Shown one piece after another: positions 5,246-31,732 of a stretch of DNA of 34,939 bases. This DNA comes from Candidatus Kaiserbacteria bacterium RIFCSPHIGHO2_01_FULL_55_37. Its GTDB lineage: Bacteria; Patescibacteriota; Minisyncoccia; Phycocordibacterales; UBA2100. The position numbers and the translations under genes are program-made. The notes beneath the pieces were generated by a model, which had not been told where the DNA came from, did no database searches, and was given only the letters and a program-made list of their open reading frames with translations. The DNA lies in NCBI GenBank assembly GCA_001781175.1, contig MFKY01000034.1:1-34939 (forward strand). Direction: 5' to 3'. Positions within the stretch are counted from its first letter, which is position 1; each line of letters opens with the position of its first letter.

Positions 5246-5322
5246 AGACCAACACTGAGAGTCGCGCACTCCGAGGTTCGGAGACGGGATTCCGGTTATG
5301 TTTTGCAACGATAGACACATGA

Positions 5323-5402
5323 ATCCCGTTAGAAATGTAGTCCGAGGGTTCATGTCGGGTAATTATTCAAGGAAGGTTTACCAATGTAATTTCTAACGGG
5401 AT
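5323..5402. mobile_element. Start-codon insertion element, copy 1 (80 bp) at the rpmJ start
   Basis: Perfect 14-bp TIR ATCCCGTTAGAAAT/ATTTCTAACGGGAT, flanked by a GA duplication (5321-22, 5403-04). Removal restores ATG AAA GTA. Confidence 0.85.
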
Positions 5403-5514
5403 GAAAGTAAAATCCTCAGTAAAAAAGATCTGTACACATTGTCACGCGGTGAAGCGTCGCGGGCGGTTGTGGGTTATTTGCAAAAATCCGAGACATAAAC
5501 AAAGACAAGGTTAA
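5401..5514 (+). CDS. rpmJ: 50S ribosomal protein L36 (Zn-ribbon type)
   Basis: Hand-translated as [37 protein letters not shown]. It is below the ORF-track length cutoff. Confidence 0.97.
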
Positions 5515-5519
5515 TCAAT

Positions 5520-5900
5520 ATGCGTATCGCCGGAATTACAATACCCGAAGAGAAGCGCCTGGAAATAGGCCTTACCGCCATTTACGGCGTCGGCCGTCCG
5601 CGTGCACTCACCACTCTTAAGGCGCTCGGAATTGACCCGGGTAAAAAGCCGAAAGACGTGTCCGCGAAAGAGGAGGCGTCGCTGCGCGAAGCCCTCGAGA
5701 AATTCACTGTGGAGGGTGAACTACGGCGAGACGTGAGCGGCAACATACGCCGGCTAAAAGACATTAAATCCTATCGCGGTTCCCGGCACGCCAAGCATCT
5801 TCCCGGTCGCGGTCAACGTTCTAAAACCAATTCACGCACGGTCCGCGGCAACGTCCGGAAGACGATGACATCAGGCCGCCGCAAATTGGAGAAAACATAA
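5520..5900 (+). CDS. rpsM: 30S ribosomal protein S13
   Basis: MRIAGI...LTAIYGVG...YRG.RH...LPGRGQRSKTNSRT. Confidence 0.98.
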   Translation: MRIAGITIPEEKRLEIGLTAIYGVGRPRALTTLKALGIDPGKKPKDVSAKEEASLREALEKFTVEGELRRDVSGNIRRLKDIKSYRGSRHAKHLPGRGQRSKTNSRTVRGNVRKTMTSGRRKLEKT

Positions 5901-5926
5901 TCCAAAAAATTTATTTTTGTACAAGT

Positions 5927-6361
5927 ATGGGAAAAAAAAGAATCATAAGAAAAAGTGGGGGAAGCGTTGACCAGGGACTGAAATCCCGCTCTCTCGCACG
6001 CATCGCAAAGAAGAACATCCTCGCGGGTACCTTGCACATACACGCCACCTACAACAACACCAAAGTACTCCTCACCGACAAGAACGGCAACGCCGTCGCG
6101 TGGTCGTCTTCCGGCGCGCTTGGCTTTTCGGGCGCCAAGAAGGGCACTCCGTTCGCAGCCGCGAAAGTCGGGGAGCTCGTGGGAGACAAAGCGGTCATTA
6201 TCGGCGTCAAAGAGGTGGACGTCGTCATCCGGGGAGTCGGAGCCGGCCGTGAATCCGCGATGCGCGGGTTTGTCGGCAAAGGTATCGACGTCACCCGGAT
6301 TGCCGACGACACACCGGTACCGCATAATGGCCCCCGACCGCCGAAACCCCGGAGAGTCTAA
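5927..6361 (+). CDS. rpsK: 30S ribosomal protein S11
   Basis: HIHATYNNT, KKGTPFAA, D.TPVPHNG.RP.K.RRV. Confidence 0.98.
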   Translation: MGKKRIIRKSGGSVDQGLKSRSLARIAKKNILAGTLHIHATYNNTKVLLTDKNGNAVAWSSSGALGFSGAKKGTPFAAAKVGELVGDKAVIIGVKEVDVVIRGVGAGRESAMRGFVGKGIDVTRIADDTPVPHNGPRPPKPRRV

Positions 6362-6367
6362 AAATAT

Positions 6368-6985
6368 ATGTTGCTCATCAAATCAAAATTCAAGATCGCA
6401 AAACGGCTCGGCGCCGCCATCTTTGAGAAGACGCAATCCCAGAAGTTCGCGCTCTCCGAGGCACGCTCCGCCGCCAACAAGAAGACCCGCGGCGGCCGCG
6501 GCGGAAGCGACTACGGACGGCAGCTTCTGGAAAAACAGCGCGTTCGTTTTACGTACGGTATCTCGGAAAGGCAACTTTCCAACTATGCGAAAGTGGCTTA
6601 CACGCAACCCGACCCTTCGGCGAGCTTGCACTGCGCGCTCGAAATGCGCGCGGACAGCGTCGCATACCGCGCGGGCCTGTTGCCCACGCGTCGCGCGGCA
6701 CGTCAGGCTGTTTCCCACGGCCACATCATTGTGAACGGCAAGCGCACGACCGTCCCTTCGTATCGCGTCCGCAAAGGCGACGTCGTCAGCGTCCGCGAAG
6801 GTAGCCGTCGTAGCCCGTTGTTTTCCGGACTGCTCGAGAACAAAGCGGAGAATACGCGTTCTATTCCCGCATGGCTCACAGTCGACCTCAGCTTGCTCCA
6901 AGCGGAGGTAGTCGGGGAGCCGACTTACAACACTGTTGAGACCGGGCTTGATTATGCAACGGTCTTTGAGTTCTACAGCAGATAA
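6368..6985 (+). CDS. rpsD: 30S ribosomal protein S4
   Basis: SDYGRQLLEKQ, LEMRAD, ARQAVSHGHI, C-terminal EFYSR. Confidence 0.98.
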   Translation: MLLIKSKFKIAKRLGAAIFEKTQSQKFALSEARSAANKKTRGGRGGSDYGRQLLEKQRVRFTYGISERQLSNYAKVAYTQPDPSASLHCALEMRADSVAYRAGLLPTRRAARQAVSHGHIIVNGKRTTVPSYRVRKGDVVSVREGSRRSPLFSGLLENKAENTRSIPAWLTVDLSLLQAEVVGEPTYNTVETGLDYATVFEFYSR

Positions 6986-7062
6986 TGGTATACTAGTGCC
7001 CACTTTTGTGTCTTTAGGCGTTTTCTATTTATTACTAGAAGCTATCAATTAAAAGCTACCAT

Positions 7063-8040
7063 ATGTCGGATTACCACATTGCACTGCCGAGTAAGCCACG
7101 CGTCGTCTCCGAAACGGAGCGGGGCGGTACCTATGAGATAGACGGACTCTATCCGGGATACGGCTACACCTTGGGCAACTCTCTGCGCCGCATCATCCTC
7201 TCGTCTCTTCCGGGCGCGGCAGTCACACACGTCAAGCTCCCCGGCGTTGCCCACGAATTCTCCACCATCGAAGGCGTCAAGGAGGATGTCGTAACGCTCT
7301 TGCTCAATATACGGAAGATTCGCCTCAAGCTTTTGACCGACGAGCCTCAGACCATCACGCTTTCCGTGAAGGGTCCGAAGGGGGTGACCGCAGCGGACCT
7401 GAAGCTGCCGGGCCAAGTCGAGATATTGAATCCGGAACAACACATCGCTGACGTAAGCGGCAAAGTAAACCTCGAAGTGGAATTGCGCGCAGAACGCGGA
7501 CTCGGCTACATCGCAAAAGAAATGCACCAAAAAGAGCGTGTCGAGATCGGCACCATCGCGCTCGATGCGATTTTCTCGCCGATACGCCGCGTCAACTACG
7601 AAGTGGAGAACATGCGCGTCGGTGACCGCACTGATTTCAACCGCCTCAGGATCGTTATCGAGACCGATGGCACACTCGCTCCGCGTGAAGCGCTCGAAAG
7701 TTCTATCAAGACGATGATTCATCAGCTCAAAGCAGTCGTCGGATTCAAGGAGGACGAGGTTCCGGAGGCTCTCATGGGTACCGCTGAATCTCACACGGGT
7801 TCTCGCGAGGACAAAGGCGGCACCATGGACGCCGAAGTACTGAAGACCCGCATCACCGAATTGAGCATGCCCCAACGCGTCGAAATGGCGCTCGACAACG
7901 CCTCTATCCGTACCGTCGGGGGATTGGTCCGCAAACGCGAGGATGACCTCCTTGCAATAGAAGGACTCGGCCAGAAAGGGCTTCAGGACATTAAGCGCGC
8001 ACTCTCAAACATGGGTCTCACACTCCGCAACGATAAGTAA
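7063..8040 (+). CDS. rpoA: RNA polymerase subunit alpha
   Basis: GYGYTLGNSLRRIILSS, HEFSTIEGVKED, DAIFSPI; alpha-CTD present. Confidence 0.98.
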   Translation: MSDYHIALPSKPRVVSETERGGTYEIDGLYPGYGYTLGNSLRRIILSSLPGAAVTHVKLPGVAHEFSTIEGVKEDVVTLLLNIRKIRLKLLTDEPQTITLSVKGPKGVTAADLKLPGQVEILNPEQHIADVSGKVNLEVELRAERGLGYIAKEMHQKERVEIGTIALDAIFSPIRRVNYEVENMRVGDRTDFNRLRIVIETDGTLAPREALESSIKTMIHQLKAVVGFKEDEVPEALMGTAESHTGSREDKGGTMDAEVLKTRITELSMPQRVEMALDNASIRTVGGLVRKREDDLLAIEGLGQKGLQDIKRALSNMGLTLRNDK

Positions 8041-8045
8041 CGCGT

Positions 8046-8432
8046 ATGCAGCATCATAAGAAGAACAGAAAATTGGGACGTAAAAAGGGTCAGAGGGTTG
8101 CGCTTTTGCGCAGCTTGGCCCGTTCGCTCGTGCTCCGGGAAGGTATCACAACCACTATTGCCAAGGCGAAGGAACTGCGCCCCTTCGTCGAGCGGATGGT
8201 CTCAATGAGCAAGAAGAACACCCTCGCCTCACGACGCATCGTAGGTACACGCATGGGAGGTGCCCATGAGGTGGTCAAAAAACTGCACGATGTATACGCT
8301 CCGCGCTACGCAAAACGCGCCGGCGGCTATACCCGCATCGTTAATCTCGGCAGAGTGGGGAAGCGCGCCGGCGAAGCCGCACGCATTGAATTCGTTTCCG
8401 CCGAAGGCGGATCCTCCTCCGGAGGAAAATAA
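8046..8432 (+). CDS. rplQ: 50S ribosomal protein L17 with a 10-aa insert at the C-terminus
   Basis: RKLGR, ITTTIAKAKELR, R.GGYTRI, IEFV. Confidence 0.97.
   Translation: MQHHKKNRKLGRKKGQRVALLRSLARSLVLREGITTTIAKAKELRPFVERMVSMSKKNTLASRRIVGTRMGGAHEVVKKLHDVYAPRYAKRAGGYTRIVNLGRVGKRAGEAARIEFVSAEGGSSSGGK
8397..8426 (+). repeat. 30-bp double-hairpin in-frame repeat, copy A (SAEGGSSSGG)
   Basis: TCCGCC-GAA-GGCGGA-TCCTCC-TCC-GGAGGA. A related copy lies at 12736-12765. Confidence 0.75.
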
Positions 8433-8437
8433 TTAGT

Positions 8438-8794
8438 ATGGAGACAAAAAACACATACACAATTGATGCCGCCGGCCGTACGCTCGGACGCGTCGCCTCT
8501 GAGGCCGCAAAGGCGCTCATGGGCAAGATGAGAGCGGACTACACGCCGAATAAAAATTCGAACGTCAAAGTCACTGTCACCAACGCAAGCAAGCTCTATA
8601 TCCGGGAACGTAAACGCTCGCGCACAATCTATACGACCTACTCGGGTTATCCGGGCGGCTTGAAGAAAGAAAGTCTCGCATCACTCGCCGCACGCAAAGG
8701 CAACGCCGAAGCTATCCGCCGTGCCGTCGCCCGCATGCTTCCGCGCAACACGATGCACACGCCGCGTTTGAAAAATTTAGCGGTCACCGAATAG
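8438..8794 (+). CDS. rplM: 50S ribosomal protein L13 (short form)
   Basis: IDAAGRTLGR.AS..A..LMGK, YSGYPGGLK, AV.RMLP. Confidence 0.97.
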   Translation: METKNTYTIDAAGRTLGRVASEAAKALMGKMRADYTPNKNSNVKVTVTNASKLYIRERKRSRTIYTTYSGYPGGLKKESLASLAARKGNAEAIRRAVARMLPRNTMHTPRLKNLAVTE

Positions 8795-8819
8795 TTCGAC
8801 TTACTCACTATACATATTT

Positions 8820-9215
8820 ATGGCAAAAGAATTACGATACACAGAAGCAGTAGGCCGCCGCAAGACCGCGACAGCGCGCGTACGCATCACTGAGGCGAAG
8901 AGTTCTTCGATGACGGTGAACGGCAAGATGGCGGATGAATATTTCCCGCTCGACGTTATGGTGAAGATGGCATTCTCTCCGCTCGTGCTTATGGGCGCCA
9001 CCTACGCTGTCTCCGCGCACGTACAGGGCGGCGGTCAGAAGGCTCAGGCGGAAGCGATTCGCCTCGGCCTTTCACGCGCCATGATAGAAGTCACTCCGGA
9101 ACAACGCAAAGACCTCAAGGTTCGCGGTTTCCTCAAACGCGATCCTCGAGCCAAGGAACGCAAAAAGTTCGGCCTCAAAGCTGCACGTCGTGCGCCGCAA
9201 TGGTCGAAGCGCTAA
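8820..9215 (+). CDS. rpsI: 30S ribosomal protein S9
   Basis: GRRKTATARV, GGG..AQAEAIR, RDPR.KERKK.GL..ARRAPQWSKR. Confidence 0.98.
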   Translation: MAKELRYTEAVGRRKTATARVRITEAKSSSMTVNGKMADEYFPLDVMVKMAFSPLVLMGATYAVSAHVQGGGQKAQAEAIRLGLSRAMIEVTPEQRKDLKVRGFLKRDPRAKERKKFGLKAARRAPQWSKR

Positions 9216-9230
9216 TTCTGACACCATCCC

Positions 9231-9260
9231 AAAAACACCTCGCAATCGCGGGGTGTTTTT
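9231..9260. terminator. Intrinsic, probably bidirectional terminator after rpsI
   Basis: AAAAACACCTCGC-AATC-GCGGGGTGTTTTT. Confidence 0.75.
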
Positions 9261-9277
9261 GTTATACTCGCCTCGAC

Positions 9278-9820
9278 ATGATGAATGTTCCCGAAGCGGA
9301 AGATTTGGATTTTGAGCCGGAGGACGAGCTTGGCTCGGTCGGCGCGGTGAAAGCGAAGATGCAAAAACTCAAGGATGAGCTCGAGAAGGTGAAGGCGGAG
9401 CGGCAGGAATACCTCGACGGCTGGCAACGATGCAAGGCAGACTCCATAAATGCCCGGAAGGAAGCCCTCCAGATGGGGGAGCGCACCGGAGAGCGCGCAA
9501 AGGAGAGCCTTATAGAAGATATTATTCCCGCACTGGACGGTTTCGATATGGCTGCGGGCTCTTCGGCATGGGAATCAGTGGACGCAGGGTGGCGCAGCGG
9601 CATCGAACAGATACGCAATCAGCTTCTTGACGCGCTTTCGCGTCACGGCGTGGAGAGATTCGGTAAAATCGGCGAACCCGCCGACCACAACGTACACGAG
9701 ACGGTCGAAGAGCGCGACGACGTCGCGGGGGAATCGGGCACTATCGCGCGGATTCTCCGCTACGGTTACAAAACGGGGCACCGAATCATACGGCCGGCAC
9801 AAGTCGTCCTCAAGAAGTAG
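9278..9820 (+). CDS. grpE: Nucleotide exchange factor GrpE
   Basis: Coiled coil, IIPALDGF, ILRYGY...IIRPAQV. Directly upstream of dnaK. ATG at 9278/9281 follows TATACT. Confidence 0.95.
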   Translation: MMNVPEAEDLDFEPEDELGSVGAVKAKMQKLKDELEKVKAERQEYLDGWQRCKADSINARKEALQMGERTGERAKESLIEDIIPALDGFDMAAGSSAWESVDAGWRSGIEQIRNQLLDALSRHGVERFGKIGEPADHNVHETVEERDDVAGESGTIARILRYGYKTGHRIIRPAQVVLKK

Positions 9821-9903
9821 TTCAGAATATTTGACAAAACTGATTTACAGGTGTATATAAACAATCTCACCTACATCTAATTTATCCATTCAATCATAGA
9901 CAT

Positions 9904-11775: not shown

Positions 11776-11804
11776 CTCTTCCAGCCGTAGGTTTAACCTG
11801 CTGT

Positions 11805-11996
11805 AAGAACGTGCAGGAGAAGATTGAAGCCGCCAAGGCGGCTCGCGCCGGTATGGACACGAACGCCATCAAATCCGCATCTGACGCGCTTTCAACCGCG
11901 ATGTCGACGATTGGCGAGTCAATGAGCAAGAACCAGCAGACCCCGCCGCAAGAACCACCCGCTAGTGACCAAAAACCGCCCGAGTCCAATGCGTAA
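11805..11996 (+). pseudogene. Diverged second copy of the dnaK 3' end (about 63 codons)
   Basis: KNVQEKIEAAKAARAGMDTNAIKSASDALSTAMS aligns with Dna[35 protein letters not shown]. It starts with the 14-bp repeat AAGAACGTGCAGGA, also at 11575-11588. Confidence 0.88.
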
Positions 11997-12059
11997 GATT
12001 GACTTAAATTGGCCAATAAAGTCTAATTGCTAGACGTTCCAGCAAACAGGGAGGTTTAG

Positions 12060-14726: not shown

Positions 14727-14728
14727 AC

Positions 14729-19776: not shown

Positions 19777-19781
19777 TATGG

Positions 19782-19865
19782 ACCCCGTTAGAAGCTTCGA
19801 GAAATGTCTTTCAACAAGTAGATTTACTGGTAACACTTCAATACTATGATGGCTTCTAACGGGGT
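19782..19865. mobile_element. Start-codon insertion element, copy 2 (84 bp) at the aspS start
   Basis: Perfect 14-bp TIR ACCCCGTTAGAAGC/GCTTCTAACGGGGT with a GG duplication (19780-81, 19866-67). Removal restores ATG GAC CGG ACA. Confidence 0.85.
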
Positions 19866-21270
19866 GGACCGGACATTCATCAAAGACTTGGCAGAGCATG
19901 TAGGGGAGTCGGTCCTTATCAAAGGCTGGGTATCCGTACGGCGCGACCAGGGCAAGATGGTCTTTTTTGATTTCCGCGATATGACGGGTACGGTGCAGGG
20001 GCTTGTCACTCCAGGGGCTGCCGCGATGGACACCGCCAAAAATACCGCGCGCGAATCCGTTGTCGCCATTACCGCAACCGTACAGGAGCGCCCCGGCAAG
20101 AATGCGCAAGCGGGGAAGCAGAATGGCAACATCGAACTCCTTATTCAGGAAATCGAAGTATTGAGCCCCGCGGCAGTGCTGCCGTTTGAGGTCAATGAGG
20201 ACACTGCGGGCATCGGCGAGGAGAGCCGTCTCGCGTACCGCTATCTCGACCTTCGTGGCGAGCGCATGCAGCGCAATATCCGCCTTCGCAGCGAGCTTGT
20301 GCAGCGATGCCGCGAATATCTATTCGGGGAAAAGTTTACCGAAATAGAGACCCCTCTCCTTACCGAATCAACCCCCGAAGGCTCGCGCGATTTCGTCGTA
20401 CCTTCACGACTGCACCCCGGCAAATTCTATGCGCTGCCGCAATCACCCCAGCAATACAAACAGCTTCTCATGGTCGGTGGTTTCGAGCGCTACTTCCAGA
20501 TTGCGCGCGCCGTGCGCGACGAAGACCTGCGCGCGGACCGCGGCTTCGAGCACACTCAAATAGATATTGAAATGTCGTTCGTATCGCAGGAAGACGTGAT
20601 GAGTACCGTCGAAGCGATGATTACGCGGACCGTCGAAGCGATGGGATACGTCGTCAAAGAGAAGCCGTTCCCGCGCTTCACCTACGCCGAGGCCATGGAA
20701 AAATTCGGAGCGGACAAATTCGACCTTCGAACGCCGGAGGATAAAGAAAAGGGCGTCCTCGCATACGCGTGGATCCATAAGTTCCCATTCTTCGAAAAAA
20801 TTCCCGAAGGCGGATGGACGTTCACTCACAACCCCTTCTCGATGCCTACTCCCGAGCATGTCGAACAGCTTCTCGCGAAGAAAGACGTGGGCGATATCCT
20901 TACGACTCAATACGACCTCGTCTGCAACGGGTACGAAGCGGGCGGCGGTAGCATCCGCGCGCATAAGCCGGAGATTCTCAAAGCGGTCTACGAAACGATG
21001 GGTTACTCCGCGGGGGAGACGGAGGAGCGTATCGGGCATATGCTGAAAGCATTCGAATTCGGCGTCCCGCCCCACGGGGGAATCGCTCTCGGCGTCGAAC
21101 GCCTGGTCATGAACCTCACGGGCGAAACACATCTGCGCGAGGTCCAAGCGTTCCCCATGACACGCGGCGGCCAGACTTCCGTCATGAAAGCGCCCAAAGA
21201 GCTGACGCCGGACCAGCTCGCCGAGCTTGGCATCCAGATATCACCAAAACCGAAACACGAGCCCCGTTAG
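19864..21270 (+). CDS. aspS: Aspartyl-tRNA synthetase, short form; alternative ATG starts at 19846/19849
   Basis: OB-fold, RYLDLR, STPEGSRDF, LPQSPQQYKQLLM, PPHGGIALGVERL. The GTG start is rebuilt by element copy 2, and the TAG stop lies inside copy 3. Confidence 0.96.
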   Translation: MDRTFIKDLAEHVGESVLIKGWVSVRRDQGKMVFFDFRDMTGTVQGLVTPGAAAMDTAKNTARESVVAITATVQERPGKNAQAGKQNGNIELLIQEIEVLSPAAVLPFEVNEDTAGIGEESRLAYRYLDLRGERMQRNIRLRSELVQRCREYLFGEKFTEIETPLLTESTPEGSRDFVVPSRLHPGKFYALPQSPQQYKQLLMVGGFERYFQIARAVRDEDLRADRGFEHTQIDIEMSFVSQEDVMSTVEAMITRTVEAMGYVVKEKPFPRFTYAEAMEKFGADKFDLRTPEDKEKGVLAYAWIHKFPFFEKIPEGGWTFTHNPFSMPTPEHVEQLLAKKDVGDILTTQYDLVCNGYEAGGGSIRAHKPEILKAVYETMGYSAGETEERIGHMLKAFEFGVPPHGGIALGVERLVMNLTGETHLREVQAFPMTRGGQTSVMKAPKELTPDQLAELGIQISPKPKHEPR

Positions 21271-21359
21271 AGGTTCGCCTTACGGTCATCAGAACCTTAA
21301 TTACCCATGGAACCACAAGGCTCAAATCATACTCACGCTCAACAGGTCTCTAATGGGGT
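21261..21359. mobile_element. Start-codon insertion element, copy 3 (99 bp, degenerate) at the scpA start
   Basis: GCCCCGTTAGAG/CTCTAATGGGGT (2 mismatches, both G-T) with a GA duplication (21259-60, 21360-61). The upstream triplet is ACG rather than ATG. Confidence 0.75.
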
Positions 21360-22083
21360 GACCGAGCGTTTTTCGTTGAGCACGGAGGCGTACCAAGGGC
21401 CGCTTGAGACGCTCCTCAACATGATAGAGGACCGCAAGATGTCCATTTCAGACATATCGCTCGCCGAGGTGACGGACGCCTATCTCTCGTATGTAGAAAA
21501 ATTACCCGAGCTTCCCCTCGGAGAGACCGCACAGTTTATTCTGGTCGCGTCCACGCTCTTGCTTATCAAATCGCGGGCGCTTCTTCCGTCACTCGAACTT
21601 TCCTCCGATGAACGCGAATCCGTCCAAGAGCTCGAGCGCCGACTCGCGCGGTACGCCGTCATCCGCAAATCAGCAAAGCTGTTGCGGGCCGGCTGGGGAA
21701 CACATCCGGTTCTGCTTGCTCATCGTGCGCCGCAGCGAGAGCCGGTATTCAGCCCGGGCAGCGCCGTACTTGGAACGATAGCGAGCGCCGCTATGCGGCT
21801 CGTGAGCATTTTGCCGAAACCGGAAGCTCTCGCACAGGCCGCGGTCGCGCCAGTCCTCGCGCTTGAAGACGTCATCAAGAGCGTACGCACGCGCCTCATC
21901 ACCGCTATCCGGGCAAGCTTCCGCGAACTTACCAAATCACGCGACCGCAACGAGGTCATCGTCTACTTCCTGGCGACTCTCGAGCTGGTGCGTTCGGGTA
22001 GTGCCAGCGTGACCCAGGAGCGCCTTTTTGAGGATATAACTATCGAACTGGAGAACGTCACCGCCCCGCGCTACGGAATATAA
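21358..22083 (+). CDS. scpA: Segregation and condensation protein A (kleisin); alternative ATG at 21307
   Basis: YQGPLETLL, FILVASTLLLIKSRALLP, VYFLATLEL...QERLFEDI. Confidence 0.93.
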   Translation: MTERFSLSTEAYQGPLETLLNMIEDRKMSISDISLAEVTDAYLSYVEKLPELPLGETAQFILVASTLLLIKSRALLPSLELSSDERESVQELERRLARYAVIRKSAKLLRAGWGTHPVLLAHRAPQREPVFSPGSAVLGTIASAAMRLVSILPKPEALAQAAVAPVLALEDVIKSVRTRLITAIRASFRELTKSRDRNEVIVYFLATLELVRSGSASVTQERLFEDITIELENVTAPRYGI

Positions 22084-25955: not shown

Positions 25956-25977
25956 ATCTCTCCGCATATAAATAAAG

Positions 25978-25998
25978 AGGCCTCCACAAGGAAGGCCT
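25978..25998. terminator. Hairpin between convergent genes; possible terminator
   Basis: AGGCCTCC-ACAA-GGAAGGCCT (one bulge) with A/T-rich flanks. Confidence 0.45.
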
Positions 25999-26087
25999 AT
26001 CTTTAGGGGCTTAGCATAGAGCAGATTCGGACCGTAGTCCGACTGTATTCCGATTCCCAGTAGTTATTCAGTGAGAGTTGCTAGAAG

Positions 26088-26468
26088 CTAGTTGAACTGC
26101 GCGTTTTTCAGATACCGCTCAGTCAACCTTGCCGCCTCCTCTTCGTCAACGACAACGTAAGTCCACTCGTATTCCTGACATGTTGTGTCGAGAAAACAGA
26201 AGTCGAGTTTGTAGCCGTAGTAGACATTCTCGTCATATGAATACGGACTCAGTTCGCGAGTTAGACCAATGTTCTTGATCTCACGCATCGCCCGTGGAAT
26301 ATCCACATTGTGATATGTCTTATCGAGGCGGTGAACCTCGCTGATCCACCAAACCGCTGCGTGCGGCATTGGTAGCTTCTCGCAGATAACAGCGCGTATA
26401 GTGTCGAGCATGAACGGATGATTGTCCTGCTCCTTAACGTGTTTGAAGAGCTTCCGAAGTGTCGGCAT
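26088..26468 (-). CDS. Hypothetical protein inserted between ftsW and murG
   Basis: 126-aa ORF with an AGGAGG RBS and its own consensus promoter. Confidence 0.75.
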   Translation of the reverse strand: MPTLRKLFKHVKEQDNHPFMLDTIRAVICEKLPMPHAAVWWISEVHRLDKTYHNVDIPRAMREIKNIGLTRELSPYSYDENVYYGYKLDFCFLDTTCQEYEWTYVVVDEEEAARLTERYLKNAQFN

Positions 26469-26510
26469 CGAACTCCTCCTTCAATGTGCGGTCGGTATTT
26501 GACCTCTTCG

Positions 26511-26539
26511 ATTGTAGCATACGCGGGAGCATATGTCAA
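26511..26539 (-). promoter_or_regulatory. Sigma70-type promoter for the ORF at 26468
   Basis: Minus strand TTGACA-N17-TACAAT with an extended -10 TG. Confidence 0.7.
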
Positions 26540-26581
26540 TTTTAATGCGTGATTGTCCTTGCCGCATGCTAAAATAATCCG

Positions 26582-27724
26582 ATGCGTATCGTTCTAATAG
26601 GAGGGGGGACGGGCGGACACTTTTATCCGCTTATCGCGGTCGCCGAGGCCATCGAAGACATCTGCCTCGAGCGGACGCTCATCGAGCCGGAACTGTACTA
26701 CGTCGGTCCGCCGGCCTTCGATAGCGAGGCTCTCCTCGAACACGACATCACTTTCATCCCGACCTCGGCAGGCAAGGTCCGCAGATATGTGAGTGCTCTC
26801 AACATACTGAGCTTCTTCACTAATGCGGCGGGCATCATACGATCCACTCGGCAACTTTTTTCTCTATACCCCGACGTTGTGTTTTCCACAGGGGGTTACG
26901 CCGCGTTCCCGACCCTTGTTGCCGCCCGGATGCTCCAGATACCGGTGGTGATTTACGACGCCGACGCTACGCCTGGGCGTGTATCTCTGTGGTCCTCCAA
27001 ATTCGCAAAATGGATAGGGGTCGCACACGCCGCTTCCGCGACAAAATATCCCGACCGGGTGCGTGACAAAATAGCGGCCGTAGGTCACCCCATACGCAAA
27101 GCCATCATCGAACCGGTGAAAGAAGGGGGGTACGAATTCCTCAAGCTCGATTCGTCCGTCCCCACCGTTTTCGTCATGGGCGGTTCTCAGGGCGCCCGCG
27201 CGATAAACGAGGTCGTGCTGGACGCGCTCGGAGTAATGGTGTCGCAATTCAACATCGTGCATCAGGCAGGACTGGCCAATACGGGTGACGTGAGCGGCAT
27301 TGCTTCTGTCGTGCTCAAAGACTCGCAATATGCTAACCGTTACAAGATGTTCGGCCTTCTCAATACGCTCGCACTGCGTATGGCGGCGGGCATCGCCTCT
27401 GTCGTCGTCGCACGCGCGGGCTCCGGCACTATTTTCGAGATAGCGAGCTGGGGCTTGCCGTCTATCCTTGTGCCGATACCGGAAGACGTTTCTCACGACC
27501 AGACGGAGAATGCGTTCTCGTACGCGCGGTCAGGAGCGGCGGTCGTTATCGAACAGCACAATCTGTCTCCGCATCTTCTGGTGGCAGAGATACAGCGCAT
27601 CACGAACGATGTCGCCCTGTGCAAGAAAATGTCCGAGGCGGCCCGCACATTCGCACGTCCCGATGCCGCCCGCAAAATCGCTCTTACGCTCCTAGAAACC
27701 TCTATTTCGCATGAACCGGTATGA
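26582..27724 (+). CDS. murG: UDP-GlcNAc:lipid I GlcNAc transferase
   Basis: GGGTGGHFYP, FSTGGY, G.PIR, GGSQGA, RAGSGT, DQTENA. Confidence 0.97.
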   Translation: MRIVLIGGGTGGHFYPLIAVAEAIEDICLERTLIEPELYYVGPPAFDSEALLEHDITFIPTSAGKVRRYVSALNILSFFTNAAGIIRSTRQLFSLYPDVVFSTGGYAAFPTLVAARMLQIPVVIYDADATPGRVSLWSSKFAKWIGVAHAASATKYPDRVRDKIAAVGHPIRKAIIEPVKEGGYEFLKLDSSVPTVFVMGGSQGARAINEVVLDALGVMVSQFNIVHQAGLANTGDVSGIASVVLKDSQYANRYKMFGLLNTLALRMAAGIASVVVARAGSGTIFEIASWGLPSILVPIPEDVSHDQTENAFSYARSGAAVVIEQHNLSPHLLVAEIQRITNDVALCKKMSEAARTFARPDAARKIALTLLETSISHEPV

Positions 27725-29037
27725 AGGTCATAACGCGTTTTCCACCGTCGCCGACCGGTTATTTTCACATCGGAAGCGCGCGCACGGCGCTTTTCAACTA
27801 TCTTTTTGCGGCTCACGAAGGAGGTGAGATGCGGATGCGTTTTGAGGACACCGATACTGCGCGAGGCAAAAAAGAATATGAAGACGACATACTCGAAGGG
27901 ATGCGTTGGCTGGGACTTCTCGGCAAAAAGCAGGCCGCGGTTTGGAAACAGTCAGAACGTACCGGTGTGTACCGCGGTTATATCAAACAACTGATAGAGG
28001 CCGGACATGCCTACGAAGCGGAAGCGGCCACAGATAACCCGGATAAAAAGGTCGTGCGTTTTAAGAATCCCAATACTACGGTTACATTCAACGACCTCGT
28101 TCGCGGTCCCGTGTCGTTTGACACGGGTGAGCTGAAAGATTTTATTATTGCAAAATCGGTCGACGACCCGCTGTACCACCTGGCCGTTGTCGTCGATGAC
28201 CATGAAATGGGCGTCACGCACGTTATCCGTGGCGAAGACCACATCTCGAATACACAGAGGCAAATACTTATTCTCGTAGCTCTGGGATACGGGCGGCCCG
28301 CATATGCTCACATTCCTCTCATTCTCGCGCCCGACCGCTCGAAACTCTCCAAACGCCACGGGGCGGTTTCGGTCAATGAATACCGGAGACAGGGTTTTCT
28401 GCCGCACGCCTTTGTGAATTACCTTGCGCTTTTGGGCTGGAACCCCGGAACCGAGCAGGAAGTCTTTACGCTTGAAGAGCTTGTAAAAGTATTCTCGCTG
28501 GAGCGTATCCACAAGAGCGGTGCTATTTTTGATAAAGAAAAGTTGCTCTGGCTCAACCACCAACACTCCAAGCGTCTGACGGACGCAGAATACGCGGGTC
28601 TCCTCAAAGATTTTACCGATGCGGATGTAAGCCTGCTGCCTGTCTCCCTCATCAAGGAACGCGCGCGGACATTTGGCGAAGCCACCGAACTCATTAAAAG
28701 TGGAGAGTACGATTTCCTCGCTGAGAAGGTCGGGTACGAGCCGCATCTGCTTCTGAAAGGTGCAAAAACAGACGCCGCAACCGCAAAGAAACATTTGAAG
28801 GAAGTCGAGACGTTGTTGATAGATGTATCGGAGAAAGTGTTCGTTTCGGAAGAGATAAAAAACGTCATCTATCCGTACGCGACGGAGCAGGGGAGAAGTA
28901 CGGTGCTTTGGCCGCTGAGGGTCGCACTTTCCGGCCGGGAAAAATCTCCTGACCCCTTCATCATCGCCTCTCTTATCGGCAAAGAAGTGACTCTGAGGCG
29001 TATTGAGTCCGCTTTGTCACACCTTTCGACCTTATGA
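27721..29037 (+). CDS. gltX: Glutamyl-tRNA synthetase (compact form)
   Basis: TRFPPSPTGYFHIG, VVDDHEMGVTHVIRGEDH, KLSKR, and the C-terminal anticodon domain (LRVALSG). Confidence 0.96.
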   Translation: MKVITRFPPSPTGYFHIGSARTALFNYLFAAHEGGEMRMRFEDTDTARGKKEYEDDILEGMRWLGLLGKKQAAVWKQSERTGVYRGYIKQLIEAGHAYEAEAATDNPDKKVVRFKNPNTTVTFNDLVRGPVSFDTGELKDFIIAKSVDDPLYHLAVVVDDHEMGVTHVIRGEDHISNTQRQILILVALGYGRPAYAHIPLILAPDRSKLSKRHGAVSVNEYRRQGFLPHAFVNYLALLGWNPGTEQEVFTLEELVKVFSLERIHKSGAIFDKEKLLWLNHQHSKRLTDAEYAGLLKDFTDADVSLLPVSLIKERARTFGEATELIKSGEYDFLAEKVGYEPHLLLKGAKTDAATAKKHLKEVETLLIDVSEKVFVSEEIKNVIYPYATEQGRSTVLWPLRVALSGREKSPDPFIIASLIGKEVTLRRIESALSHLSTL

Positions 29038-30350
29038 TTTCGCGTGCGAACGTCGTTGCCGCGCTACTTAGCCTCGCGGTTTTCTCCGCGCTTTCACTGC
29101 AGGTGACTCCAGTACTCGCACAGAGTACCGATGACGCATCCCAGACAGCTAGCGAGCTGCAGCGGCAGATTGACGAGCAGAGCGCTCAGATAACACAGCT
29201 CGACAAAGAAATCGCACAATACCAAAAAGAGCTGGACGCCGTCGGCACCAAAAAGAAAACCCTCCAGAATGACCTAAACGAGCTGAATCTGCTCCTGAAG
29301 AAAAGCGCCGCCTCAATCAGTGCAACGCAAAAGAAAATAACCTCGACACAGCTGCAAATCAAGCAGCTCGCGAAGGGCATGGCGGTGAAGCAGGATTCTA
29401 TCGATACGGATGTCGCAGGGCTTGCGGAGTCGTTCCGGAAAGTGAATGAAGCGGATGCGACGTCGCTCGCCGTACGGATACTTGCTTCCGAAGACCTCGC
29501 GGCGACCTGGCGTGAAATGGACTCATATCAGACGCTCCAGTCCGCCATTACCGACCAGATAGCGAAGCTGGCAGCGGAAAAGCAATCGCTCGCCGAGATA
29601 AAAAAGAGGACCGAGGAAAAGCGGGCCGAACTGGTCGCTCAGCAGAACACTCTCGTCGCGCAGCAGGGTTCGTTGAACGCCCAAAAGAAAGCCCAGAACG
29701 AACTTCTGGCGCAGACGAAATCCCAGGAATCGACGTACCAAGCGCTCCTCGCACAGAAGGTGGCCGGAAAGGCAGCTTTCGAAGCCGCACTCAACGACCT
29801 CAAGGCTCAATACCTCCAGGCGGTGGACCCGTCGCAAATCCTCGCGGCCAAAAAAGGCGTGCTCCGTTGGCCGCTCGACAAGATACGGATAACCCAAACC
29901 TTCGGGCAATCCTCTTTTGCTCTAAGCGGCGCCTACAACGGCAAAGGCCACAACGGCATTGACCTGGGCGCGCCCATCGGCACACCGGTCAAGGCGGCCC
30001 TCACTGGGACCGTGTGGGCTACGGGAAATACCGACCTCTATAAAGGCTGCTATTCGGCGGGCAAGTGGATAATGATAAAGCACTCGAACGGCCTCTCGAC
30101 GCTCTACGGGCATCTTTCACAGATTTCCGTGGTGCAAGGTCAGAGCGTGTCGGGCGGTCAAATAATCGGCAACGTCGGGGCGACCGGCTACGCCACCGGG
30201 CCGCATCTGCACCTCAGCGTCTACGTAACCTCCGTCACCAAAATCATGACCTTCGGTGAGGCTACGAACAGAACATCCGCCTGCTCGCGGGCAACCATTC
30301 CCATCACTCCTCCGGCCGGGTTCCTCAACCCGATAGCGTACCTTCCTTAA
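29034..30350 (+). CDS. Secreted coiled-coil M23 peptidase (EnvC-like architecture, Zn motifs intact)
   Basis: Signal peptide, long coiled coil, HNGID (HxxxD), YGHL, TGPHLH (HxH). Confidence 0.92.
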   Translation: MISRANVVAALLSLAVFSALSLQVTPVLAQSTDDASQTASELQRQIDEQSAQITQLDKEIAQYQKELDAVGTKKKTLQNDLNELNLLLKKSAASISATQKKITSTQLQIKQLAKGMAVKQDSIDTDVAGLAESFRKVNEADATSLAVRILASEDLAATWREMDSYQTLQSAITDQIAKLAAEKQSLAEIKKRTEEKRAELVAQQNTLVAQQGSLNAQKKAQNELLAQTKSQESTYQALLAQKVAGKAAFEAALNDLKAQYLQAVDPSQILAAKKGVLRWPLDKIRITQTFGQSSFALSGAYNGKGHNGIDLGAPIGTPVKAALTGTVWATGNTDLYKGCYSAGKWIMIKHSNGLSTLYGHLSQISVVQGQSVSGGQIIGNVGATGYATGPHLHLSVYVTSVTKIMTFGEATNRTSACSRATIPITPPAGFLNPIAYLP

Positions 30351-30979
30351 CGCCTCTTCCACTCCTCGATTTCCAAGGCACGCAATTCTATTTTTGATGC
30401 GGGCCGAAGCGTGCGCATAGATTTTTTCGGGGCAAGAGGGGAGTGGCGGGAGTCATCGAGCACATCGACGAGCCATACGAGGTCTCCTTCCTCCGTCACC
30501 CAGCGCTCCGGGGCAAACCGCCGGAGGTCATACGGCTTCGAATACGCGAGCATGGATTTCCGGCCGTTTTCCAACACGTATTCATGCGCGTACGACATCG
30601 CGAGCTCACGCACGGTCCGGTATATCGGGTCGCGGTAACGGAGAATCGCGTGATTGGTCTTGCTGATGGCACCCCACAGTCCGTTCTCCTTAAAAAGCGC
30701 CACGACATGGTCCTCATCACTCGGCAGCGTCTGGAGGTCCAACAAAAGCGGCCGCTGCCCGTGGTACGCAAAAGCCGCTGCGGCCAAAAGCGCCCCCTCG
30801 AAACAATGCGCCGTGCGCTCCCTCAAAAGCCGCCGCGGCGACATGTACGTCTCGCCGCGCAGCTCGAAATTAATCGGAAGCTTGTCCAGAAAATCCTGGA
30901 TCTTTTTTGCCGTCGTGAGTTTAGCAAAAATCTTACGCTCAGAAGGGGAGAGTGCCGCCCGGATTCTCTCCTTATACAT
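30347..30979 (-). CDS. Conserved hypothetical protein, possible transglutaminase-like Cys-His fold
   Basis: AHCFEGAL...DHVVALF...WGAISK. Start placed at MYKERI, 6 nt after TATACT. Confidence 0.75.
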   Translation of the reverse strand: MYKERIRAALSPSERKIFAKLTTAKKIQDFLDKLPINFELRGETYMSPRRLLRERTAHCFEGALLAAAAFAYHGQRPLLLDLQTLPSDEDHVVALFKENGLWGAISKTNHAILRYRDPIYRTVRELAMSYAHEYVLENGRKSMLAYSKPYDLRRFAPERWVTEEGDLVWLVDVLDDSRHSPLAPKKSMRTLRPASKIELRALEIEEWKRR

Positions 30980-31020
30980 AGGCACAGTATACAAGAGGCC
31001 GTACCGCGGGGATAAGTGCA

Positions 31021-31050
31021 TTGACGGGTGAACCGTAGTTCACTTATACT
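31021..31050 (+). promoter_or_regulatory. lexA promoter with an SOS box between -35 and -10
   Basis: TTGACG-N18-TATACT. The palindrome GTGAAC-CGTA-GTTCAC at 31028-31043 matches the GAAC-N4-GTTC LexA box type. Confidence 0.8.
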
Positions 31051-31060
31051 GTACGGATGT

Positions 31061-31167
31061 ACCCCGTTAGAAGTCTTTCAACCGTTCCTGTTGCGCAACG
31101 CGATTGCGAAGGCTTTCACTCGCTTATTCAGTAGCACCATTTCTATGTCAGAAACTTCTAACGGGGT
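31061..31167. mobile_element. Start-codon insertion element, copy 4 (107 bp) at the lexA start
   Basis: Perfect 14-bp TIR ACCCCGTTAGAAGT/ACTTCTAACGGGGT with a GT duplication (31059-60, 31168-69). Removal restores ATG TAC GAG ACC. Confidence 0.85.
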
Positions 31168-31732
31168 GTACGAGACCTACAAAACCGCCGTCGTTTCTTT
31201 CTACAAGAAGCACCGCCGCATGCCCGGCTACAAAGAAATAATGCAGCTTACGGGATTCCGTTCCAAAAATGCCGTCTTCAAACTCATCGCGAAAATGGTG
31301 CAGGACGGCGTCGTTGTGAAAGACAAGAGCGGCCGCATCACACCGGGCAGACTGGCCGCGGGTGTCCGGTTGCTCGGCGTCGTTGAGGCGGGATTTCCTT
31401 CTGCGGCCGAGGAAGAGCTTCTGGACGTGATGGATTTCGACGAATACCTGGTGCCCAACAAAGAGTCCACCTACATTCTCAAGGTGAAGGGAGACTCGAT
31501 GATAGATGCGGGCATACATCCCGGCGATATGGTCATCGTCGAGCGCAAGGCCACGTACAAGCCGGGACAGATTGTCGTCGCGATGATAGACGGCGAGTAT
31601 ACGATGAAGTACCTGCGCAAAAAAGACGGCGAGCATTTTCTCGAGCCCGCCAACGCCAAATACAAGCCCATCTATCCGCGCGAATCGTTCCGTATCGAAG
31701 CGGTGGTTACCGCCGTCGTGCGCAAATACTAG
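31166..31732 (+). CDS. lexA: LexA-family repressor (S24 peptidase); alternative ATG at 31145
   Basis: N-terminal winged HTH (MPGYKEIM...GFRSKNAV), Ala-Gly cleavage site VEAGFP, catalytic Ser (GDSM) and Lys (TMK). Confidence 0.9.
   Translation: MYETYKTAVVSFYKKHRRMPGYKEIMQLTGFRSKNAVFKLIAKMVQDGVVVKDKSGRITPGRLAAGVRLLGVVEAGFPSAAEEELLDVMDFDEYLVPNKESTYILKVKGDSMIDAGIHPGDMVIVERKATYKPGQIVVAMIDGEYTMKYLRKKDGEHFLEPANAKYKPIYPRESFRIEAVVTAVVRKY

Follow-up and report, generated by a model that had tools for sequence, protein, structure and literature searches.

Short inserts at start codons of a Kaiserbacteria contig as probable non-autonomous members of a mobile family whose full-length form encodes a GIY-YIG nuclease

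The window analyzed in this work, a whole contig of 34,939 nucleotides from Candidatus Kaiserbacteria bacterium RIFCSPHIGHO2_01_FULL_55_37 (MFKY01000034.1), carries four short inserts with common ends, each located at the start of a gene. What kind of DNA are these inserts, and why do they lie where translation begins? An earlier note had described four such elements directly after the starts of rpmJ, aspS, scpA and lexA, and both the elements and their siting were borne out. The window contains 8 occurrences of the motif CCCRTTAGA, arranged in four inward-facing pairs, compared with 0.29 expected, and none of 100 shuffled sequences reached 8. The cores of copies 1-4 extend over positions 5325-5400, 19784-19863, 21263-21357 and 31063-31165, respectively, and one extra complementary base per side (T..A or C..G) brings the elements to 78, 82, 97 and 105 bp. 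The annotated features are as follows.

5319..5321, + strand: original ATG of rpmJ (copy 1), which now opens a short upstream frame with its stop TAA at 5394-5396
5320..5323, + strand: left TGAA of the 4-bp target duplication flanking copy 1 (sequence read)
5324..5401, + strand: copy 1, short element of 78 bp with T..A ends; terminal stem folds in prediction
5401..5514, + strand: rpmJ (Pfam L36, 37 aa) from the rebuilt ATG, made of the last A of the element and the duplicated TG
5402-5405, + strand: TGAA, right copy of the duplication of copy 1 (sequence read)
19778..19782, + strand: original ATG of the AspS-like gene (copy 2), including the left TGGA duplication at 19779-19782
19783..19864, + strand: copy 2, short element of 82 bp with C..G ends, from a 77-80-bp subfamily; terminal stem folds in prediction
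19864..21270, + strand: AspS-like ORF of 468 codons from the rebuilt GTG (Pfam class-II aaRS)
21262..21358, + strand: copy 3, short element of 97 bp at the aspS/scpA junction (sequence read)
21358..22083, + strand: scpA, 241 codons, from the rebuilt GTG (Pfam ScpA); orthologues begin M(T/S)GRF at the same codon
31021..31056, + strand: lexA promoter-like stretch, with TTGACG, 18 bp containing a GAAC-N4-GTTC palindrome, TATACT and 6 nt to the ATG
31057..31061, + strand: original ATG of the LexA-like gene (copy 4), including the left TGTA duplication at 31058-31061
31062..31166, + strand: copy 4, short element of 105 bp with C..G ends; terminal stem folds in prediction
31166..31732, + strand: LexA-like ORF of 188 codons from the rebuilt GTG (Pfam Peptidase_S24)
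31167-31170, + strand: TGTA, right copy of the duplication of copy 4 (sequence read)

The ends of the family form a perfect terminal inverted repeat of 10-13 bp, YCCCGTTAGA...TCTAACGGGR. At start codons the insertion takes place at A|TGNN and is accompanied by a 4-bp target duplication, TGNN, of which the left copy keeps the old ATG. On the right side the last base of the element (R) and the duplicated TG create a new in-frame ATG or GTG, and therefore the host protein is unchanged; as the earlier note had claimed, the rebuilt codons open the host ORFs in all four cases. The duplicated targets are TGAA, TGGA and TGTA in copies 1, 2 and 4. Copy 3 has no duplication left, its right end carries one change (TCTAATGGG), its terminal stem is predicted not to fold, and the position equivalent to the old start codon reads ACG. 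The proposed 2-bp GN duplication has to be given up, since copies elsewhere with TGAG, TGCG, TGGG and CAAG fit only a 4-bp parse. It appeared to be 2 bp because most duplications start with T and end with A, which lengthens the inverted repeat by one pair.

Positions 1, 11, 12 and 13 of the repeat vary yet remain Watson-Crick paired in 84-86 of 88 copies, a pattern of sequence change which indicates that the pairing of the arms matters. The short forms are 57-120 bp in size and have no coding capacity of their own. Only a minority of the 88 short copies have an upstream frame that extends to the rebuilt start: it stops within 10 nt of this codon in 23, is in frame with it in 3, and runs past it in 8, some of which overlap the start. 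Individual copies in the window have further features. The interior of copy 2 contains ATGs in frame with the AspS-like gene (…ATG ATG GCT TCT AAC GGG GTG), and the stop of this ORF, TAG at 21268-21270, lies within the left inverted repeat of copy 3. The hexamers upstream of lexA, where orthologous promoters were also examined, are in our reading putative promoter boxes in a leaderless layout.

That these inserts constitute a non-autonomous, MITE-like mobile family, as the earlier note had supposed, is supported by the 4-bp duplications, nested insertions, precise empty sites and patchy distribution. This 0.86-Mb genome contains 27 paired copies, while the exact pattern was found in 18 of 41 related genomes with 0-38 copies in each. 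Most long copies are flanked by an exact 4-bp duplication, and copies nested in others have duplications of their own (CAAG, CGAA and TTCA). In relatives, the orthologous genes lack an insert at precisely these start codons. The rpmJ orthologue in genome G011 (37 residues, 100% identical) has no insert, the aspS site is empty both in G010 (...atttaatATGGACAGAACA) and in G011, and in the same two genomes the aspS/scpA junction is an uninterrupted ATGA stop/start overlap. The lexA insert is absent from all ten orthologues in other genomes of the genus. When G000 and G011 were compared, 7 of the 15 copies at start codons in the former and 18 of the 33 in the latter had an empty site in the other genome, and the orthologue starts at the same codon in every case where the protein alignment runs from residue 1 (in two of the 18 G011 cases it begins only at residue 11 or 28). 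Inverted repeats and target duplications with empty sites are two of the three marks of a MITE; the third is that a non-coding element has a longer relative which shares its ends and does encode a protein.

Such a relative, the existence of which the earlier note had raised as a possibility, occurs in related genomes. The full-length form is 277 bp long, has the same ends, and contains one open frame of 94 codons, the product of which is a GIY-YIG nuclease (Pfam GIY-YIG, E 2.2e-15). The nuclease frame takes up the whole element, with the repeats at both ends read as codons, and lacks a start and a stop codon of its own. It begins at the host ATG as M-x-P-V-R, where PVR represents the left repeat, and ends with ...L-S-L-T-G at the duplicated-target TGA, which overlaps the rebuilt host ATG (ATGA). 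This layout was checked in six copies (from G011, G006, G017, G021, G038 and G037) followed by six different host ORFs of 158-500 codons; a seventh listed full-length match, G038:C6, is not among them. The dN/dS ratio of the nuclease is 0.11-0.24 at dS of 0.6-1.1, which indicates purifying selection on the protein. Its nearest solved structures are the UPF0213 proteins 1zg2 and 1ywl, and SLX1. The short and long forms match at the ends only, over 17-24 nt of the right arm and 12-14 nt of the left arm. No nuclease-coding copy was found in the assembly of this genome (90% complete), where the sole GIY-YIG match is distant and lacks the repeats.

The link between the nuclease and the repeats was further analyzed at 30 small GIY-YIG loci, 17 of which have flanking inverted repeats with at least 12 matches (shuffled maximum 9-13). 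Among these 30 loci, the long form or a close variant was found in 9 of 18 genomes with the short pattern and in none of 23 pattern-free genomes. It is this association that points to a role of the nuclease in movement. GIY-YIG enzymes hydrolyze DNA, and we know of none that makes target duplications. A DDE insertion sequence (IS4/IS5/IS1380, IS3, IS630 or piggyBac-like) was rejected as the source, since the DDE_Tnp_1, rve, DDE_3 and piggyBac-type domains (PF01609, PF00665, PF13358 and PF13843) had no match in the complete, copy-rich genomes G011 and G027, although the null for PF13843 carries little weight because this search matched no control genome either. The rve matches in G033 and G037 are without the repeats.

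We conclude that the inserts in the window are probably non-autonomous, internally deleted members of a mobile family, and that its full-length, nuclease-coding form is the likely source of the mover. Given that the nuclease frame starts at the host ATG and ends at ATGA, the enzyme would be expressed from the host promoter and host start codon, and translation of the host gene would rely either on stop-start coupling or on direct initiation at the rebuilt codon. The nuclease may recognize a hairpin or cruciform made by the repeats and mobilize short as well as long copies. Orientation and site rule would be retained in the short ones because the same integration step is used for both forms; all short copies in the window have the nuclease-sense orientation.

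The start-codon target claimed by the earlier note holds as a strong association: ATGNN precedes 125 of 575 termini in 41 genomes, compared with about 9 expected and 3 matches of a reversed control pattern. Start codons are not the sole sites, however. About half of all copies lie away from them, and the other targets include promoter -35 and extended -10 boxes and, in other phyla, TAAA/TTTA sites. Such a distribution could possibly, although we do not favor this, be produced by survivorship, where integration would occur at any T-N-N-A-like 4-mer in AT-rich DNA and, with 90% of the genome coding, insertions would persist only if they happened to restore an expression signal (start codon, -35 box or extended -10 box). 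This agrees with the duplications, which are mostly T..A 4-mers without obligatory TG (TTGA/TCAA, TAAA/TTTA, TATA, TAGA and CAAG also occur), and with the right-hand duplicate of non-start copies, which restores TTGACA or TGNTATAAT. Likewise, in our own count of 26 loci with a non-CPR phylum label, 5 lie at start codons, and TAAA/TTTA is present in 11. On the other hand, even with a generous definition of a start, intergenic TGNN sites outnumber start-like ones by about 5:1 (the latter account for no more than 18-20% when TGNN sites at starts and between genes are pooled, and for 2% of TGNN sites overall), yet long copies occupy start codons in 33 of 50 cases in G011; in G000 they do so in 15 of 21. 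The 77-80-bp subfamily is at a start codon in every copy examined and in a single orientation. The symmetric ends would permit either orientation, yet it is identical relative to the gene in 41 of 41 related start-codon pairs, and the CCT-carrying arm adjoins the gene in 37 copies versus 4. The bias may therefore reflect targeting or, less probably, survival.

It is more doubtful that the short copies, whatever their mobile origin, are now host parts, namely 5' hairpin modules that control translation or mRNA stability of the gene behind them, in line with the domesticated control module which the earlier note had offered as an alternative. In eight orthologous pairs from G000 and G011 the ends are identical at 188 of 192 positions, compared with 0.74 for interiors and 0.66 for third codon positions. 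The ends thus show far stronger conservation in situ than neutral sites do, which is unexpected of dead copies and makes a host-level role possible. The covariation of the arms would fit such a role, as would the enclosure of the first base of the start codon in the terminal stem and the stops at the junction, where one frame meets a TAA in the right repeat, 4 nt ahead of the start, and another ends over the start at the duplicated TGA. However, presence varies freely between close relatives even at rpmJ, aspS, scpA and lexA, and G-T pairs in the arms are as rare as mismatches (4 vs 5 of 352), so that pairing at the DNA level fits better than pairing in RNA. Retention of the same 9-mer in different phyla suggests that it is read by a protein, and no Rfam 15 family matched anywhere in the window, either at the gathering score or with E up to 1. 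It also appears unlikely that another, unseen enzyme moves the MITE, with the GIY-YIG gene being a passenger or having invaded it secondarily. Apart from there being no biochemical precedent known to us, this could be argued from the 27 copies in this genome with no nuclease gene among them and from the limited sequence, 12-24 nt per end, common to short and long forms. A passenger is nevertheless hard to reconcile with a selected frame that uses the repeats as codons and has a fixed length: within the best 119 homologue clusters, a length of exactly 94 aa was found in 77, PVR occupies residues 3-5 in 86, and LSLTG is the C-terminus in 99. Moreover, five repeat types were distinguished among the repeat-flanked loci, and these vary with how similar the nuclease homologues are to the query (a similarity-based grouping, with no tree), while the four DDE-type families searched had no match in two complete copy-rich genomes. 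Single-domain GIY-YIG nucleases of the Ssn family bind and cut beside their own flanking hairpin repeats (PMC11893778). Finally, the location of the copies at gene 5' ends and the absence of a transposase from the window might suggest a vertically inherited leader or an assembly artefact; this is highly improbable and already contradicted by the exact empty sites, the target duplications and the nested copies. At least 120 stretches, derived from many genomes that were assembled independently, show the same structure, and copy 4 is spanned by identical contigs in two public DNA runs from two studies.

No published description of this element was found. The nearest published relative is the Ssn nuclease with its NTS/SRM hairpin repeats (Chenal et al. 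2025, PMC11893778), for which site-specific cutting of single-stranded DNA beside the hairpin was shown and the NTS-ssnA-NTS arrangement was likened to an insertion sequence; REP/REPIN with RAYT and IS200/IS605 are cited in its discussion. In both systems a small single-domain GIY-YIG gene lies between inverted repeats of its own, the genome has numerous additional repeat copies without a protein, and repeat types vary with the nuclease. The Ssn flanks, however, are described as separate 20-50-nt hairpins, whereas the ends here are two arms of one stem and are read as codons; target duplication, empty sites and start-codon siting are present here, and none is reported for Ssn/NTS in the accessible text (PMC11893778). 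An Ssn nuclease is a single-domain GIY-YIG protein of CDD family cd10448; our nuclease has a Pfam GIY-YIG match, with UPF0213 proteins as its nearest solved relatives. An SRM-flanked Ssn system was rejected, as the published degenerate SRM consensus has 0 matches within 300 bp on either side of the 30 GIY-YIG loci and the flanks are single arms of one stem.

Among other known systems, DDE-derived bacterial MITEs such as Correia elements are also short, non-coding and multicopy, with inverted-repeat ends and target duplications, and are often co-transcribed with neighboring genes. In contrast to these, the candidate parent here encodes a GIY-YIG nuclease rather than a DDE transposase, the insertion is registered to rebuild a start codon, and the orientation to the gene is fixed. 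GIY-YIG homing endonuclease genes, free-standing or intron-borne (e.g. I-TevI and the T4 seg genes), are likewise selfish nuclease genes beside or inside host genes. Homing enzymes carry a separate DNA-binding domain and are copied by repair into one cognate site, leaving no inverted repeats or duplications. The many unrelated target genes, inverted repeats and 4-bp duplication found here, together with a single domain of 94 residues, rule out this class. REP/REPIN-RAYT and IS200/IS605 resemble the present family in structure-dependent recognition and in the association of many hairpin-forming repeats with a single small gene for a nuclease or transposase. These systems use an HUH tyrosine enzyme, are located between genes, and make no target duplication, and they were rejected for the latter reason. 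To our knowledge, no nuclease parent or start-codon rule has been described for Rickettsia palindromic elements, which are short and tolerated inside reading frames; similarly, 'mini' copies of the present family, 27-30 bp in size, lie in frame inside ORFs.

The motif CCCRTTAGA forms four inward-facing pairs in the window, with eight matches against 0.29 expected, a number that none of 100 shuffles reached. The earlier note had placed four short elements at the start codons of rpmJ, aspS, scpA and lexA (copies 1 to 4), and its positions and gene names were borne out by sequence reading, by open reading frames and by Pfam, which assigned the downstream products to L36, a class-II D/K/N tRNA synthetase, ScpA and Peptidase_S24 (LexA-like), respectively. 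In copies 1, 2 and 4, ATG plus two bases adjoins the left end, and the last element base joins TG at the right to give an ATG or GTG that opens frames of 37, 468 and 188 codons; in copy 3, a GTG opens a 241-codon frame. One extra complementary base lies outside each pair (T..A in copy 1, C..G in copies 2 to 4).

The assembly of the source genome (G000; 862,658 bp in 58 contigs, 55% G+C) contains 27 paired copies, comprising 21 of at least 50 bp and six 'mini' palindromes of 27-30 bp. When element bounds are taken as YCCCGTTAGA...TCTAACGGGR, an exact 4-bp direct repeat flanks most of the longer copies, and some have 3 or 5 bp; the repeats include TGAA, TGGA, TGAG, TGCG, TGGG, TGTA, TGAT, TTGA/TCAA and TAGCA. 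The 2-bp GN duplication first proposed was not confirmed, because repeats such as TGAG or CAAG are compatible only with a 4-bp parse; it appeared as 2 bp because most repeats begin with T and end with A, which adds one pair to the inverted repeat. Nested copies in two related genomes have their own repeats (CAAG, CGAA and TTCA). Among 88 start-codon copies from many genomes, 84-86 have a Watson-Crick pair at arm positions 1, 11, 12 and 13, and G-T pairs are no more frequent than mismatches, while positions 2-10 were set by the search patterns and carry no information on pairing.

The 'mini' palindromes (G000 contigs C7:16328-16354, C55:3143-3169 and C27:6132-6158; related genome G011 C1:157663 and C1:307687) consist of the two ends and a 9-12 bp spacer, and a clear duplication is absent. 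Several lie in frame inside long ORFs, where they would add about 9-11 residues (..PVRG.ASNG..). Duplication-less copies show a recurrent one-sided extension, CCTG 5' of the left end or CAGG 3' of the right end (G000 C4:31491 and C55:3143; G011 C1:25152, C1:126614 and C1:157663; extracted locus L166), which may represent a variant end or another site class. At the end of the AspS-like gene (window 21262-21270), a TAG within the left repeat of copy 3 creates a new C-terminal ...EPR; aspS of relatives stops at a TGA overlapping the scpA ATG.

The start-codon siting claimed in the earlier note stands as a strong excess, but promoter boxes and TAAA/TTTA sites are also used. Across 41 related genomes, ATGNN stands directly before 125 of 575 YCCCGTTAGA termini, against about nine by chance and three matches for a reversed control pattern. 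In G000, 13 of the 21 longer copies have both an old and a rebuilt start codon followed by a frame of 35 codons or more, and two others have the right one only; in G011 the numbers are 29 of 50, plus four. In a tally from crude gene calls, with 'start' defined generously, start-like sites make up at most 18-20% of start and intergenic TGNN sites and 2% of all TGNN. Since this share is small, the excess at starts is real; it may originate in integration or in survival.

In some non-start copies (G027, G011 and G000), the right-hand repeat restores a promoter box, either TTGA in TTGACA or TGATA or TGCTA in TGNTATAAT-like extended -10 boxes; these promoter labels are our own reading of the hexamers. 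One G011 copy scored as a start (C2:44803; orthologue G000 C25:1549) is better interpreted as sitting in an extended -10 box, with a leaderless gene downstream. Two subfamilies occupy different sites within G027 (loci L005 and L088-L103): a form of about 115 bp in TTGACA or TGNTATAAT boxes at 12 of 14 loci fetched, and one of about 190 bp on start codons at 5 of 5, both sets being picked from the listing and thus non-random.

When one genome per species was scanned, at least 120 stretches had the ends spaced 75-105 bp apart; many CPR lineages are represented, as are records labelled Omnitrophota, Planctomycetota, Deltaproteobacteria/Desulfobacterota, Brocadia and a Gammaproteobacterium. Start-codon copies account for 62 of the 134 elements in the stretches listed, and the commonest repeat among the remainder is TAAA/TTTA (17). 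The Omnitrophota-, Planctomycetota- and Deltaproteobacteria-labelled records have identical ends and mostly TAAA/TTTA duplications (loci L109, L112, L113, L134, L141, L145, L157, L164, L169, L178, L182 and L183); L109 has its copy placed between a Shine-Dalgarno-like AGGAGG and the ATG.

The earlier reading of a mobile, MITE-like element is supported by the 4-bp repeats, nested copies, empty orthologous sites and patchy occurrence. The exact-ends pattern was found in 18 of the 41 related genomes, ranging from 0 to 38 copies within one genus, and also in five other families of the order. Empty sites in relatives, suggested as a check, were found for all four window copies. The aspS site reads ...atttaatATGGACAGAACA in G010 against ...atttaatATGGA-element-TGGACCGGACA in G000, and is empty in G011 as well; the aspS/scpA junction in both relatives is an unbroken ATGA stop/start overlap; and the insert is absent from all ten lexA orthologues of the genus. 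G011 has none of the four window copies, and its rpmJ is 100% identical over 37 residues, with no insert. When the start-codon copies of G000 were compared with G011 (n=15), seven sites were filled, seven empty and one had no orthologue; the reciprocal comparison (n=33) gave 8, 18 and 7. Empty orthologues have the same start codon in every case aligned from residue 1, and in 2 of the 18 empty G011 cases the alignment starts only at residue 11 or 28.

One orthologous start codon (G000 C56:19925, G011 C6:55729) bears unrelated interiors (94 and 113 bp, 0.45 identity), which suggests that the site was used repeatedly or that the insert was replaced there. The sequence was also matched by nine public DNA runs from soil and groundwater in six studies, with no RNA run among those listed. 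In contigs of four public runs, none of the 15 joints listed skips an element (116 further joints fall outside that list), a result that is uninformative on empty alleles, and public-run contigs break at copy 3. Viral contigs yielded only three stretches with the pattern.

Long copies enclosing a nuclease between the same ends, another check suggested earlier, were found in G011 and G021 and then in other genomes. Here ends about 275 bp apart delimit a single open frame spanning the element, read ATG NNY CCC GTT AGA. The 94-residue G011 product matches the Pfam GIY-YIG domain over residues 10-74 (E 2.2e-15, 57 bits; cut-off 22.6), and its closest relatives of known structure are 1zg2 and 1ywl, both UPF0213 proteins, and SLX1. 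In the 41 genomes searched, six checked copies share a common layout (G011, G006, G017, G021, G038 and G037); a second full-length G038 match (C6) listed in the search lies outside this set. Each checked copy opens with ATG-NNY-CCCGTTAGA (one change in G017) and closes with ...TCT CTA ACG GGA TGA. This TGA overlaps the host ATG and forms the opening triplet of the right-hand target repeat. The host frames behind these copies are all different, at 158 to 500 codons. In the G011 copy, codons 1-12 showed no other in-frame start by eye. The nuclease frame thus borrows a start from the host gene and a stop from the duplicated target. Four long forms gave dN/dS of 0.11-0.24 at dS of 0.6-1.1.

A protein database search returned 1083 homologue clusters at E up to 1e-5, from records labelled Kaiserbacteria, Paceibacterota or Patescibacteria and named 'GIY-YIG nuclease family protein', 'putative endonuclease' or, wrongly, 'excinuclease ABC subunit C'. 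Among the best 119 of the 1083 clusters, 77 are exactly 94 aa long, PVR occupies residues 3-5 in 86, and LSLTG forms the C-terminus of 99; residue 2 is most often N (65), followed by S (18) and I (12), matching the coding of TGAA, TGAG and TGAT repeats followed by Y.

This GIY-YIG long form is the candidate parent of the family. Short and long forms match at the ends only, over 17-24 nt at the right and 12-14 nt at the left. All 41 related start-codon pairs have one orientation relative to the gene, in a set that is non-independent and includes orthologues. The arm ...CCT-NNN-TCTAACGGG adjoins the gene in 37 copies and points away in four, with 47 lacking the marker; as the nuclease frame has this arm at its 3' end, the short copies lie nuclease-sense. 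Inside the nuclease frame (L264 and L267), GGAAGCGTTTCA.. and ..TGAAACGCTTCC lie about 150 nt apart and are complementary over 12-14 nt. A short subfamily of about 118 bp has these segments fused as a GNRA-looped hairpin, as if it had arisen by deletion between them.

Small GIY-YIG genes were examined at 30 loci. Inverted repeats with 12 or more matches flank 17 of them (9-13 at most after shuffling) and fall into five types; the 13 repeat-less loci are more distant homologues.

Inverted-repeat types flanking small GIY-YIG genes
Repeat type CCCGTTAGA: nine loci
Repeat type CCCGGTAGTACAAC: related genome G014
Repeat type ACACACGAAATGACCT: related genomes G015 and G016, with a related form in G023
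Repeat type CCCCGTGAGATA: related genomes G009 and G020
Repeat type with 23 matches: related genome G022

Among the loci fetched, the CCCGTTAGA-type long form or a close variant occurs in 9 of 18 genomes with the short pattern and 0 of 23 pattern-free ones, a count that overstates the support because related genomes are non-independent. The sole GIY-YIG gene of the G000 assembly (90% complete) is distant and has no repeats. Sister small GIY-YIG genes (L273, L277, L280, L278, L281 and L283) have quite different inverted repeats. Several repeat-flanked loci adjoin a host frame whose start overlaps or closely follows, for example GTGTGA with a host GTG.

Several other explanations were considered. 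An RNA family was rejected, as Rfam gave no matches, whether at the gathering score or with E relaxed to 1. The half-sites resemble integron attC core sites but stand in reverse order, and this reading was dropped. A translated intron, a ribosome bypass or a spliced element was dropped as well: the copies are not scattered over coding sequence, and with a rebuilt start there is no need to remove them. The CCC ends and 4-bp T..A duplication resemble those of piggyBac/IS1380-like elements, which suggested such a parent. Searches of the complete genomes G011 and G027 for DDE_Tnp_1, rve, DDE_3 and piggyBac-type domains gave no matches; the piggyBac-type search (PF13843) is uninformative, as control genomes gave none with it. 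G033 and G037 do have rve genes, but these are without the repeats. Repeat-bounded copies of 300-6000 bp in G000, G011 and all loci were only chance pairs of neighbouring short copies. No outward promoter was seen by eye in the right end.

The ends themselves are unusually stable. In eight copies orthologous between G000 and G011, the outer 12 nt per end are identical at 188 of 192 positions, compared with 0.74 identity in the interiors and 0.66 at downstream third codon positions. Dead copies should not retain their ends so well; a host-level role of the hairpin, continued nuclease action on the ends, or exchange between copies are possible explanations.

The literature search found no published description of this element. 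In the text available to us, the closest published system is the Ssn family of single-domain GIY-YIG nucleases, which are flanked by their own hairpin repeats (NTS/SRM) with hundreds of extra repeat copies, cut single-stranded DNA beside the hairpin, and are likened, as gene plus repeats, to an insertion sequence by their authors (PMC11893778). Judged against that portion of the paper, the start-codon family differs in having a single stem with arms doubling as codons, in duplicating its target, in leaving sites that are demonstrably empty in relatives, in its siting at start codons that are then rebuilt, and in lacking a match to the SRM consensus; the Ssn supplement, with its homologue and repeat lists, may include this clade.

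Kinship with GIY-YIG nuclease and repeat systems and with MITEs is indicated, and there is a substantial chance of a new transposon class. A fuller reading, which we advance tentatively and rate slightly below an even chance, is a new prokaryotic class whose sole protein is a nuclease of about 94 residues, startless and stopless, with both signals supplied by the duplicated ATGA, expression confined to copies on a gene's start codon, and integration perhaps steered to single-stranded DNA of the promoter open complex. Copies lie in both extended -10 and -35 boxes, and the open-complex idea leaves the latter unexplained. If the nuclease moves the element, a catalytic class new to transposition would be added and the known minimum size of an autonomous mobile element would fall. 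We know of no listing of GIY-YIG catalysis among bacterial insertion sequences, and 277 bp would be, to our knowledge, the smallest autonomous DNA transposon, if autonomous.

The family points to a new lifestyle for selfish DNA in a streamlined, 90%-coding genome: it occupies start codons of essential genes (L36, AspRS, ScpA and LexA), borrows their expression signals and returns the start codon. At such loci, gene callers will be prone to misplace starts or to add N-terminal tails such as ..SNG(V/M). An explanation is also gained for hundreds of 94-aa 'GIY-YIG nuclease family proteins' annotated in CPR genomes. A mini-nuclease that is specific for sequence or structure and paired with a defined DNA partner could serve as a tool, a potential that the Ssn authors argue for in their own family (PMC11893778).

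Leaderless mRNAs appear to be common in the lineage. In the G000/G011 genome scan, Shine-Dalgarno-like words precede 15-16% of gene starts versus 18-19% of internal ATGs, and a TANNNT hexamer lies 4-9 nt upstream of 24% of first starts (about 40% allowing any early start) versus 3% of internal ATGs; with a -10-like hexamer so close, many genes look leaderless. Such a hexamer precedes 27 of 47 hit start codons at 4-9 nt, a weak excess over the 24-40% background, and a Shine-Dalgarno-like word precedes three.

After insertion, the transcript would presumably start at or near the old ATG, and the frame read from it would meet one of three fates set by element length modulo 3: an in-frame run into TCT AAC GGG RTG, a stop at the TAA within TCTAAC 4 nt upstream of the new start, or a stop at the duplicated TGA over the new start. 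In the 88 copies, this frame stops within 10 nt of, or overlaps, the new start in 23 (versus four stops within 10 nt when the element is reversed in silico), is fused in frame in three, was scored as running past in eight, some being RTGA overlaps, and stops more than 30 nt upstream in 49. Strict translational coupling was rejected, since the upstream frame reaches the new start in a minority of these copies only; coupling seems, from the reading frames, to be built into the long form and some short forms and not to be universal. The other copies would rely on direct initiation at the rebuilt codon or on internal in-frame ATGs, for example ATG GCT TCT AAC GGG. Upstream of the lexA-like gene (window 31021-31059), TTGACG, an 18-bp spacer with GAAC-N4-GTTC, which we take to be a LexA-box-like palindrome, TATACT and 6 nt precede the ATG; the predicted layout is leaderless and self-regulated, and it is conserved in orthologues.
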